From: Gemmatimonadales bacterium
Lineage (GTDB): Bacteria > Gemmatimonadota > Gemmatimonadetes > Gemmatimonadales > GWC2-71-9
Assembly: GCA_037189525.1 (NCBI GenBank)
Contig: JBBCJC010000003.1
Span: 544,001 to 608,000 of the forward strand
DNA length: 64,000 nucleotides
Reading direction: 5' to 3'
The notes under the pieces are model-generated. The model saw only the letters and a list, made by a program, of their open reading frames with translations. It did not search any database and had not been told where the DNA came from. A program made the translations under genes and the position numbers. Below, in pieces: positions 30,796 through 34,117 of the stretch (within the stretch, counting starts at the first letter, position 1; each line of letters opens with the position of its first letter).

Positions 30796-31929
30796 ATGCG
30801 CGGTGTTGCCGTCTTGGGATCGACCGGGTCGATCGGTTGTTCCACGCTCGATGTGCTGCGCCGGCACCGCGACCGTTTCCGCTTGGTGGCGCTCACCGCC
30901 GGTACCAATGCCGCAGCGCTTGATGCGCAGGTGGCGGAGTGGCAACCGGTGTTTGCCGGCCTGGTCAACGGCACGGTCGGCGGCAGCCGGGCCAACGGGA
31001 CGGCCTGTCTGGTCGAGGCCGCCACCCATCCCGATGTCGATATCGTCGTCAATGCCGTGGTCGGATTTGCCGGACTCGAAGCGACGCTCGCGGCGCTGGA
31101 AGCGGGCAAGCGGGTTGCCCTGGCCAACAAGGAGTCGCTGGTCGCTGCGGCATCGCTGGTCGAACGGGCCCGCCGCAGGGGCGGCGGGGAACTGGTGCCG
31201 GTCGATTCGGAGCATAGCGCGGTGCTCCAGTGCCTCACGACCGACGGCCCGCGTCCGACCCGGCTGATTCTCACGGCTTCCGGCGGACCGTTTCGCGACT
31301 GGCCCGCCGATCGGGTGGTGGCCGCCACGGTGTCCGAGGCGCTGCAGCATCCGACCTGGCGGATGGGTAGCAAGATCACGGTCGACAGCGCGACGCTGGC
31401 CAACAAGGCGCTCGAGGTCATCGAGGCGCATGTTTTGTTCGATCTCCCGTACGATGCGATCGACGTCGTGGTGCATCCGCAGAGCGTGGTGCATGCGTTC
31501 GTCGAGTTTGCCGATGGCAGCGTGCTGAGCCAGCTCGGCTATCCGTCGATGGAATTGCCCATCCTCTATGCGCTGACCTATCCGGAGCGGTTGCCGGATG
31601 CGGGCGTTCGCCGGTTCGATCCGGTCACGGCCGGTCCGCTCACCTTCGAGCCGGTTCGTCACGATGTGTTCCGTACCTTTGCGATCGGCGTGGCCGCCGG
31701 CCGCGCAGGCGGTACGGCGCCGGCCGTGTTCAACGCAGCCAACGAAGTGGTGGTTGCGGCGTTCCTGGCCGAGGAGATCGGATTTGGCCGGATTGCTGAA
31801 GTGGTCGATCAGGTGCTGGGGTTGCATCGGACCGAACCGGCCGACGACCTCGTCGCGATTCGGCGGGCGGATGCCTGGGCCCGCACGGCCGCGCGGGCTA
31901 CCATCGAGGGCACGCGGGCCGGGGTGTAA
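30796..31929 (+). CDS. dxr: 1-deoxy-D-xylulose 5-phosphate reductoisomerase
   Basis: LGSTGSIG, LANKESLV, PVDSEH, HPTWRMGSKITVDSATL, NAANE. Confidence 0.97.
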   Translation: MRGVAVLGSTGSIGCSTLDVLRRHRDRFRLVALTAGTNAAALDAQVAEWQPVFAGLVNGTVGGSRANGTACLVEAATHPDVDIVVNAVVGFAGLEATLAALEAGKRVALANKESLVAAASLVERARRRGGGELVPVDSEHSAVLQCLTTDGPRPTRLILTASGGPFRDWPADRVVAATVSEALQHPTWRMGSKITVDSATLANKALEVIEAHVLFDLPYDAIDVVVHPQSVVHAFVEFADGSVLSQLGYPSMELPILYALTYPERLPDAGVRRFDPVTAGPLTFEPVRHDVFRTFAIGVAAGRAGGTAPAVFNAANEVVVAAFLAEEIGFGRIAEVVDQVLGLHRTEPADDLVAIRRADAWARTAARATIEGTRAGV

Positions 31930-31964
31930 CGCCGTCTGTTACTCGATGGGGGTGGGGGGTGGGC

Positions 31965-31993
31965 TTGCGCAAATCCTAACGACTTCCCAGATT
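31965..31993 (+). promoter_or_regulatory. Putative sigma70 promoter, predicted TSS at the leader-peptide ATG
   Basis: TTGCGC-N17-CAGATT-N6-ATG; no SD upstream of ATG 32000. Confidence 0.55.
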
Positions 31994-31999
31994 AGAAAC

Positions 32000-32095
32000 A
32001 TGCGCTCGACCCGATTCTATTCGTTTGCGACCTATTTTACCTACGCGGCGTATTTTGCCAGCGGGGGAGTGGCTCGCATGCGTAGATCAGGCTGA
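32000..32095 (+). CDS. Phe/Tyr-rich attenuator leader peptide [31 protein letters not shown]
   Basis: 4 Phe + 4 Tyr within codons 6-19; directly upstream of a terminator and aromatic biosynthesis genes. Confidence 0.88.
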
Positions 32096-32131
32096 CAGTA
32101 GCGCCAGACGCAAGCGAACCACGGCCCCCGC
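32061..32131 (+). promoter_or_regulatory. Antiterminator helix of the attenuator
   Basis: GCGGGGG/GTGG/TCGC/TGCGT (32061-32083) pair with ACGCA/GCGA/CCAC/CCCCCGC (32108-32131); 20 bp overlapping the terminator 5' arm. Confidence 0.85.
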
Positions 32132-32154
32132 AAATCGCGGGGGCCTTTTTGTTT
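32123..32154 (+). terminator. Intrinsic terminator (attenuator)
   Basis: GGCCCCCGC-AAATC-GCGGGGGCC followed by TTTTTGTTT. Confidence 0.92.
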
Positions 32155-32175
32155 GCCCAAAGCCCCGAGGATCCG

Positions 32176-33018
32176 ATGACCGCGTTTTCTGCCCAGCTGC
32201 CTGCGACCGTTCCCGTCACCGTCGGGGATCGGTGCTGTTTTGGTGGCACCGATCTCGTCGTGATCGGCGGGCCCTGCTCGGTCGAGAGCGCGGCCATGGT
32301 ACTCGACACCGCGTTGTCCGTGGCGGCGTCCGGAGCGCGGATGCTCCGGGGTGGGGCCTTCAAACCGCGCACCTCGCCCCACACCTTCCAGGGAATGGGC
32401 GACCCGGCGCTCGACCTGCTGGCCCAGGCCGGCGAACGGGCCGGTCTCCCGGTCGTGACCGAAGTGACCGATCCTCGGCACGTGGATCGAGTGGCCGGGG
32501 TGGCCGACATGCTCCAGGTCGGCGCCCGCAACATGCAGAACTACGCCTTGCTCGCCGAGGTCGGCCGGAGTGGAAAGCCGGTCCTGCTCAAGCGCGGCCT
32601 GGCCGCGACGCTCAAGGAATTCCTGCTTGCTGCGGAGCATATCCGGGTCGCGGGGAACGATGCGGTGGTGCTCTGTGAACGCGGGATCCGCACCTTCGAA
32701 ACCGCCTCCCGTTTCACGCTCGATGTCACCGCCGTTCCCGTCCTCAAAGCCGAGAGCCACCTGCCGGTCATCGTGGACCCGAGCCATGCGGGCGGGCGCG
32801 CCCCGCTGGTGGCCCCGCTGGCCCGGGCGGCCATCGCGGCAGGTGCGGACGGGTTGATCGTCGAGGTACACCCCGAGCCGGCGACGGCCCAGTCCGATGC
32901 GGAGCAATCGCTGACGTTCGCCGCGTTTGCGGAGCTGATGGTGCAGGTGGAGCGGGTGGCGCTCGCCGTGGGGCGGACCATCGGTGCCGCGCCGCTGGCC
33001 GTCGGGGCCTCGGTATGA
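32176..33018 (+). CDS. aroF: DAHP synthase type I-beta, catalytic domain only
   Basis: [54 protein letters not shown]; 280 aa. Confidence 0.93.
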
Positions 33019-33566
33019 TGCGGATTGCCATTCAGGGCGAACTGGGCGCCTTCTCCGAGATCGCGGCCGACTATATGAGCCGGGGCGAGCACGAGGTGGT
33101 TCCCACCCGCTCGTTCCGGGACGTGGTCGAGGCGGTGGAGAGTGGCCGGGCGGATGCCGGTGTTCTCCCGATCGCCAACAGTATCGTGGGGCCGGTGGTG
33201 GACAGCGTCGATGCCCTGGCAAGCGGGACGGCGGTCCTGGTCGATGGCGAATGCGACGTTCCGGTGCGCCTCCACCTGATGGGCCTGGGCGCGGCCACCC
33301 TCGACCGCGTGGCGCACGTCGCATCCCATCCCGTAGCATTGGCGCAGTGTACTCGTTTCCTTGGCGGCCATCCCGATTGGTACGTCGAGACCTATTACGA
33401 CAGCGCGGGCGCGGCGCGTGACGTGGCCGCGCGCGGGGATTCTTCGTTCGTCGCCATCGCGGGCGACGCTGCCGCCACGCGGTATCGGCTTGCCATTCTG
33501 GCCCGCGACGTCCACGATCTGCCGGACAACTCGACCCGCTTCGTGCTGATTCGGAGGCGCCCATGA
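33015..33566 (+). CDS. pheA: Prephenate dehydratase, catalytic domain only (no ACT domain)
   Basis: [37 protein letters not shown] followed by stop 7 codons later. Confidence 0.9.
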
Positions 33567-33940
33567 CCCGCCGGATGTGGGGCCTTCGCGGCGCCATCAC
33601 CGTCGACGCCGACCGTCCGGAGCTGATCCGGGCCGCGACGCGCGAACTGCTCGAGACGCTCGTCACCAGGAACGACCTGGATCAGGACGAGATCGTGAGC
33701 GCCATCTTCAGCGTCACCACCGACCTCGTGAGCGAATATCCGGCTACGGGTGCTCGCGAGCTGGGTTGGGTGGAGGTGCCGCTGCTCTGCACGACCGAGA
33801 TTCCGGTGCCCGGCGGCCTTCCGCGGGTCATTCGGGTCCTGCTGCATGTCGAGCCTGCCGTGCCGCGAGCCCGATGGCAGCCGGTCTACCTCCGGGGGGC
33901 CACGGTGCTGCGTCCCGATCTGGTGCCGGTCCCCTCCTGA
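33563..33940 (+). CDS. aroH: Chorismate mutase, AroH class
   Basis: GLRGAIT, FSVTTDL..EYPA..AR, VPLLC..EIPVPGGLPRVIRVL, YLRGA..LRPDL. Confidence 0.93.
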   Translation: MTRRMWGLRGAITVDADRPELIRAATRELLETLVTRNDLDQDEIVSAIFSVTTDLVSEYPATGARELGWVEVPLLCTTEIPVPGGLPRVIRVLLHVEPAVPRARWQPVYLRGATVLRPDLVPVPS

Positions 33941-34117
33941 GGCCGGCTCGATGCCGAGCCGCCGGCTATTTCGGAATGGCTGGCGGTCGGGTTACCCTTC
34001 CTGCCGCAATTTGTTCCTCGGCGGAACAATCCGCCCCGGCGCTCGGCCGGGGCGGTCGGATCTCCGGCGTCCGGCGGAATATCCGCCCGGATTTGCCCGG
34101 CTGAACCTGGGGTTGGT

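Follow-up and report, generated by a model that had tools for sequence, protein, structure and literature searches.

The DAHP synthase-pheA-aroH operon in the window, by which we mean the whole stretch of 64,000 nucleotides analysed here, is very likely controlled by a ribosome-mediated transcription attenuator of the classical type. The anatomy of its leader region, the cognate genes downstream, the recurrence of such leaders in relatives and the modelled position of the switch together argue for this reading, and computation thereby supports the initial annotation, which had recognised a trpL/pheL-type architecture. Given such an attenuator, a response to Phe can be expected with great confidence, and a response to Tyr as well is probable. 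An OR gate for Phe and Tyr may reasonably be inferred, although Tyr is without effect in the aroR precedent discussed below.

Leader peptide and RNA helices

The predicted features of the leader region are as follows.

31965..31970, + strand: predicted -35 hexamer, TTGCGC; conservation with two same-genus genomes begins just upstream, and its geometry matches related leaders
31988..31993, + strand: predicted -10 hexamer, CAGATT, 17 nt past the -35 and 6 nt ahead of the leader ATG
32000..32095, + strand: leader peptide ORF of 31 codons, with 4 Phe and 4 Tyr within codons 6-19
32013..32088, + strand: long 1:2 helix predicted without a ribosome, -30.1 kcal/mol at length 32090, containing the region of the 6-bp protector
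32061..32131, + strand: antiterminator of 20 bp, arms 32061-83 with 32108-31
32123..32154, + strand: intrinsic terminator of 9 G-C pairs with a 5-nt loop and a U tract (8 T in 9 nt)

The leader has Phe at codons 6, 9, 13 and 19 and Tyr at codons 7, 12, 15 and 18, and six of these eight codons are TTT or TAT, exactly as had been read from the sequence at the outset. The share of TTT/TAT in the long coding ORFs of this genome, which is 65.5% GC, is 0.26, and the excess in the leader has a binomial P of 0.006. Of the genome's 39,757 short ATG ORFs, the leader alone contains at least seven Phe or Tyr per 14 codons. In the folding models described below, codons 6-15 are the likely sensor codons. 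A 165-codon ORF at 31598-32095, which ends in the leader, was considered and taken as a shadow frame, since it overlaps dxr and is interrupted in one relative by an 8-nt insertion that lies upstream of the promoter.

All three helices that had been claimed, namely the protector, the 20-bp antiterminator and the 9-bp terminator with its U tract, pair as described. The antiterminator fold has an energy of -39.8 kcal/mol and a z-score of -5.0, equalled by none of 200 shuffles, and its lowest 7 bp (32061-67 with 32125-31) occupy the 5' arm of the terminator, so that the two structures are mutually exclusive. The terminator hairpin proper (32123-32145), recognised by its sequence pattern, is followed by TTTTTGTTT. 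The role given to the protector needs revision: its 6 bp (32041-46 with 32080-85; -7.3 kcal/mol as a duplex) are indeed complementary, but they do not form the main 1:2 helix, being minor in the ensemble (P no higher than 0.08 for the complete transcript) and the best fold only with the ribosome at F9 on a short transcript. In the ribosome-free leader, the helix at 32013-32088 is the best fold up to 32122 and the antiterminator is best by 32131.

Predicted promoter and translation start

The leader ATG at 32000 has no Shine-Dalgarno sequence, and the -35 was missed by a consensus promoter scanner. Placement of the -10 hexamer 6 nt before the ATG would give a leaderless transcript with its start at or near 32000, and, given the attenuator, the sequence makes it quite likely that the leader is translated in this leaderless manner. 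A -35/-10 pair lies upstream of 65 of 70 distinct related leaders (described below), with an in-frame start 5-11 nt past the -10 in 58 and 6-7 nt past it in 38; the same -10-to-ATG geometry is found at only 26 of 10,886 sampled ATGs of the genome. According to the title of a paper cited in PMC4046766, which was available in part, the leader of C. glutamicum ilvBNC is translated without a ribosome-binding site. In three RNA runs (shares 0.06-0.07; few short contigs), each run gave one near-identical contig of 151-173 nt on the leader region at a depth of 2-3; one of these contigs reaches back to 31955, ahead of the predicted start, and two extend past the terminator.

Switching in folding models

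Equilibrium folding of the full leader was rejected as a test of the switch, with no switch visible: on the complete transcript the terminator has a P of about 1 at every ribosome position, because its 3' arm repeats the first seven bases of the antiterminator and displaces only those, while the upper 13 bp stay. As the terminator wins at equilibrium wherever the ribosome stands, we infer from these models that the decision must be kinetic. When the RNA ends short of the terminator's 3' arm, the antiterminator has a P of about 1 up to an A-site codon of 17-19 and of 0 beyond, the last such codon being 17, 18 and 19 for ribosome footprints of 12, 9 and 6 nt, respectively. When the arm is available as far as 32143, a ribosome at F6, F9, Y12 or Y15 leaves the antiterminator as the best fold, and one at Y18, F19 or the stop leaves the terminator. 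In these models three Phe and three Tyr codons (F6-Y15) can safely be placed in register, Y18 is borderline and probably out of register, and F19 is probably also out of register. The original set of control codons therefore stands for F6-Y15 and falls short at Y18 and F19, where the terminator folds best once its 3' arm is out.

The proposed sequence of events is as follows. A sigma70-type promoter would start the transcript at the leader ATG. With charged Phe-tRNA and Tyr-tRNA plentiful, the ribosome would pass codon 19-20 and cover 32061-67, leaving the 5' arm of the terminator free, and transcription would stop near 32150-54. With either Phe-tRNA or Tyr-tRNA scarce, the ribosome would stall in codons 6-15, and 32061-83 could pair with 32108-31 before the 3' arm of the terminator leaves the polymerase, allowing read-through.

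Operon and genomic setting

The leader heads a cassette of three genes, with the following coordinates for these and the flanking genes.

30796..31929, + strand: dxr, left flank of the inserted cassette and outside the switch
32176..33018, + strand: type I-beta DAHP synthase, TIGR01361 above cut-off with a PF00793 match, catalytic barrel only
33015..33566, + strand: prephenate dehydratase (pheA), catalytic domain only, the sole PF00800 match of the genome
33563..33940, + strand: AroH-type chorismate mutase, TIGR01796 above cut-off, PF07736
34118..35455, + strand: rseP, right flank of the inserted cassette and outside the switch

Stops and starts overlap between DAHP synthase, pheA and aroH. 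DAHP synthase and chorismate mutase feed both the Phe and the Tyr branches and pheA belongs to the Phe branch, and the operon thus serves both. The DAHP synthase at 32176..33018 has no match to the ferredoxin-like regulatory domain PF18152, which is present in both paralogues, and no ACT domain is found in the prephenate dehydratase at 33015..33566, which ends with its catalytic domain. Since both enzymes lack allosteric domains, the sequence suggests that the attenuator may be the main feedback acting on them.

Among 22 genomes of the same genus, the cassette lies between dxr and rseP in three, rseP directly follows dxr in 17, and two are uninformative. This distribution points to insertion of the cassette in one sub-lineage, repeated loss being less likely. 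In a FastTree phylogeny the sister of the DAHP synthase is a Gemmatimonadales sequence (L035) with a support of 0.99, which fits that order. In 31930-34117, the cassette that separates dxr from rseP, a consensus scan detected neither a terminator after dxr and ahead of the leader nor a promoter ahead of rseP, so that read-through into rseP might likewise depend on the attenuator.

The TyrA-like gene of this genome lies on another contig and not in the DAHP synthase-pheA-aroH operon. A PF02153 search of the genome gives no match, and a PF20463 search finds a TyrA-like ORF (L233:949-1854, contig C5) that passes both Pfam cut-offs on rescan. In the genome's phenylalanine-hydroxylase-like gene, Ala stands where a homologue has the first conserved His, an iron ligand. 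The presence of the TyrA-like ORF and the replacement of this His led us to reject the idea that tyrA is missing and that Tyr is made only from Phe. Calls of tyrA absence in this genus from PF02153 alone appear unreliable, in that a divergent TyrA-like gene is missed; no claim made here rests on the order-wide tallies of PF02153 (204 of 301 genomes) or PF00351 (151 of 301), which include some genomes marked as unpublished (G114, G278). The phenylalanine-hydroxylase-like gene (L232:1477-2220, - strand; C5 ~484,250-485,150) immediately follows a leader of 4 Cys and 2 Phe codons with its terminator, and may be a diverged enzyme under cysteine control.

Related leaders

We assembled 119 DAHP synthase loci, comprising the window's own locus, those of the two paralogues and the top-scoring matches from two homologue searches, the second of which contributed 30 + 60 loci out of 150 matches listed. 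An aromatic-rich short ORF followed by a terminator within 700 nt upstream of DAHP synthase was present at 72 of the 119 loci, and at one of 119 in a reverse-strand control. In 80 named loci from other genomes, whose titles name Gemmatimonadota, Chloroflexota, Planctomycetota, Calditrichota, Bacillota and Deltaproteobacteria, among others, a leader match was counted by eye on the coding strand in 23 and on the opposite strand in four. At two loci, L046 (99-215 and 2124-2201) and L066 (2223-2339 and 2475-2609), two leader and terminator matches precede one DAHP synthase, and the second may have arisen by chance.

The loci yielded 70 distinct leader peptides, including perhaps one or two false matches. 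The modelled antiterminator collapses 0-3 codons past the last aromatic codon in 49 of the 70, and in an arm-pairing shuffle test 27 leaders beat all 20 shuffles (about three expected); with the ribosome at the stop, just 16 fall below 0.2. The leader of the window is itself unremarkable in the shuffle test, with 7 of 20 shuffles as high.

Three near-identical copies of the region (91% identical) differ at five sites within 32061-32145, and none of the five falls on a pair of the antiterminator or the terminator (P 0.008); one of them converts a mismatch to a C-G pair. The Y12 codon has a synonymous change in one relative that keeps Tyr. For covariance modelling, close copies were too alike and distant ones too different. 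The conservation that the initial annotation had looked to in related upstream regions is therefore found in part: aromatic leaders recur well above the control, but the three close copies, 91% identical, hold no compensatory changes.

Leader make-up and operon content

The codons of the related leaders follow the genes behind them. In leaders linked to pheA (n=19), Phe exceeds Tyr in 14, equals it in three and is exceeded by it in two, with averages of 3.95 Phe and 2.16 Tyr. Leaders linked to tyrA have more Tyr than Phe in 15 of 16 cases, four having no Phe codon at all, and each of the seven linked to trpE has four Trp codons. A further 27 leaders have none of pheA, tyrA and trpE in the stretch fetched, and one has both pheA and tyrA. 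The pheA-type enzymes lack a regulatory-domain match in 15 of 19 cases, with at most 158 nt from terminator to catalytic match; at all 16 tyrA-type loci this distance is at least 249 nt. The raw Mann-Whitney p for leader make-up against operon is 1e-5, which is overstated since kin share traits, and a tree-based test gives two supported independent pairs, or four on all branches, with a sign test p of 0.5. With kin sharing traits and only 2-4 independent pairs, we regard the match of make-up to operon as a pattern and not as a test.

The Phe-free leaders, with 4-6 Tyr, stand before DAHP synthase-tyrA operons (L184, L196, L011 and L185), and would be cleaner cases of Tyr sensing than the leader of the window. 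In the same genome as the window, a leader with four Trp codons, a promoter and a terminator precedes the second DAHP synthase, which heads trp genes (C3:116483, - strand), and similar Trp leaders occur in other genomes of the genus; no leader was detected at the third DAHP synthase paralogue of the genome. The genome also has leaders rich in His and in Thr, which share the promoter-ATG geometry and have terminators, and possibly one rich in Lys (C1:590654, -; C1:804115, +; C2:214939, -). Candidate cysteine-sensing attenuators are four short ORFs rich in Cys, with a terminator behind each (C2:314795, -; C5:194724, +; C5:533942, -; C5:485152, -).

A wider reading of these patterns, which we offer tentatively and at somewhat under even weight, is that in this order leader codons, and not allostery, apportion the control of DAHP synthase to the paralogues, with leaderless attenuators retuned for each operon (Phe-rich with pheA, Tyr-rich with tyrA, Trp with trpE). 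The pheA-type copies, that of the window included, would then have shed their regulatory domains and have a true Phe-OR-Tyr attenuator as their only feedback, and the Phe-free Tyr leaders before tyrA would sense Tyr-tRNA.

Alternative explanations

The same attenuator may in practice be a Phe-only sensor like C. glutamicum aroR, with the Tyr codons as tolerated neighbours, an explanation that splits the preferred one rather than replacing it and that we consider unlikely, though with a real share of the probability. The tyrA-linked leaders, dominated by Tyr in 15 of 16 cases and Phe-free in four, make Tyr codons look usable as sensors, and both branches draw on DAHP synthase and chorismate mutase. 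In this leader the Tyr codons in register number three (7, 12 and 15), and in one relative Y12 persists despite a synonymous change. Against these points stand the content of the operon, which has pheA and not tyrA, the TyrA-like gene being on another contig; the preponderance of Phe over Tyr in pheA-type leaders (3.95 against 2.16 on average); and aroR itself, which has a Tyr codon and yet, in the covered part of PMC11802643, is described as unaffected by Tyr.

Explanations that dispense with sensing of amino-acid supply are far less probable. That U-ending codons make the leader a sensor of general decoding speed or of tRNA wobble modification would suit the six of eight sensor codons that end in U, against an expected 26%, and U-ending codons make up 169 of 346 Phe/Tyr codons in related leaders; however, C-ending codons are as common there (177 of 346), the U-rich codons of the leader double as the 5' strand of the 1:2 helix, and codon identity tracks the pathway branch, all of which leave this idea quite improbable. 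We give marginally less credence still to a constitutive terminator of an upstream rpsB-dxr transcript together with a small peptide that has nothing to do with it and functions as a protein. Such a terminator would have a use where none is found between dxr and the leader, and would agree with the outcome at equilibrium, and the leader aromatics recur with a six-residue periodicity that would be compatible with a helix. It would nevertheless leave the 20-bp antiterminator and the flip position unexplained, while related leaders share composition and position but not sequence, their make-up tracks the downstream gene, and the leader travels with the cassette, in three of 22 genomes of the genus. 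An attenuator responding to Phe, and probably to Tyr, is the reading that we retain.

Comparison with known systems

The window's leader shares with E. coli pheL-pheA, trpL, hisL and leuL a leader of cognate codons, an overlapping antiterminator and terminator, and biosynthetic genes downstream, and unlike the pheL type it has codons for two amino acids and is probably translated leaderless. The multivalent attenuators thrL (Thr/Ile) and ilvL (Leu/Val/Ile) act as an OR gate for several products of a branched pathway, and the leader described here resembles them in having codons for several products in one leader, in this case for the aromatic pathway. An Rfam search of 31800-32400 gave Phe_leader (RF01859) 17.5 bits against a cut-off of 55 and Leu_leader 19.9 against 50, and contained no T-box or riboswitch family among its nine matches up to E 10.

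Attenuation ahead of DAHP synthase has been described before. Song et al. (2005) listed putative attenuators ahead of the type I-beta DAHP synthase/pheA/tyrA operons of Thermus, Thermoanaerobacter and Bacteroides, which have in common with the window a predicted terminator and antiterminator before the same enzyme class; the covered portion of that paper does not use the words 'leader peptide', and the covered rows of its table include no Gemmatimonadota (PMC1173090). An element before aroF of Shewanella is given, in the part of PMC2659441 covered, as an 'attenuator sensing tyr-tRNA', and our literature search found no tested leader-peptide attenuator that senses Tyr-tRNA. A balanced Phe/Tyr leader does not appear in the covered parts of PMC1262725, PMC2659441, PMC3082878, PMC4833913 and PMC10272879, and we found no published description of such an attenuator in Gemmatimonadota; mixed Phe/Tyr leaders may nevertheless be on record in Vitreschak 2004, Lopatovskaya 2010, Neshat 2014 or the supplements.

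In C. glutamicum, a Phe-Tyr-Phe leader, aroR, precedes aroF and responds to Phe, with Tyr without effect, according to the summary of Neshat et al. 2014 in the covered part of PMC11802643 (see also Mentz et al. 2013, PMC4046766, likewise covered in part). As far as these partial sources describe it, aroR shares with the present case ribosome-mediated attenuation and a leader that has codons for both Phe and Tyr ahead of a DAHP synthase operon; aroR has Phe-Tyr-Phe only, the window's leader has 4 Phe and 4 Tyr and belongs to another phylum, and the two are likened by codon content and not by sequence. Unlike in the aroR operon, the enzyme here is of type I-beta without a regulatory domain, and is followed by pheA and aroH. 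The novelty suggested for a leader of this kind was consequently overrated, since the mechanism and, in the covered part of PMC11802643, a Phe/Tyr leader before a DAHP synthase operon are both published. Attenuators for two amino acids, such as thrL, are textbook knowledge. The mechanism is not new, and the leader is a further case of a known attenuator class.

The interest of the present case is in the Tyr response, the leaderless start, the enzymes without regulatory domains and the order-wide match of leader codons to operon. The Phe-only, balanced, Tyr-only and Trp-only leaders form a natural series on one scaffold in which it can be asked whether Tyr codons sense Tyr, the lineage offers a test of attenuation standing in for lost allosteric domains, and the leaders bear on how leaderless initiation is coupled to attenuation. 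Set beside the known systems, they would add a little-studied order, probably Gemmatimonadales, to the groups with ribosome-mediated attenuation, and the copy in the window is one that Rfam misses.
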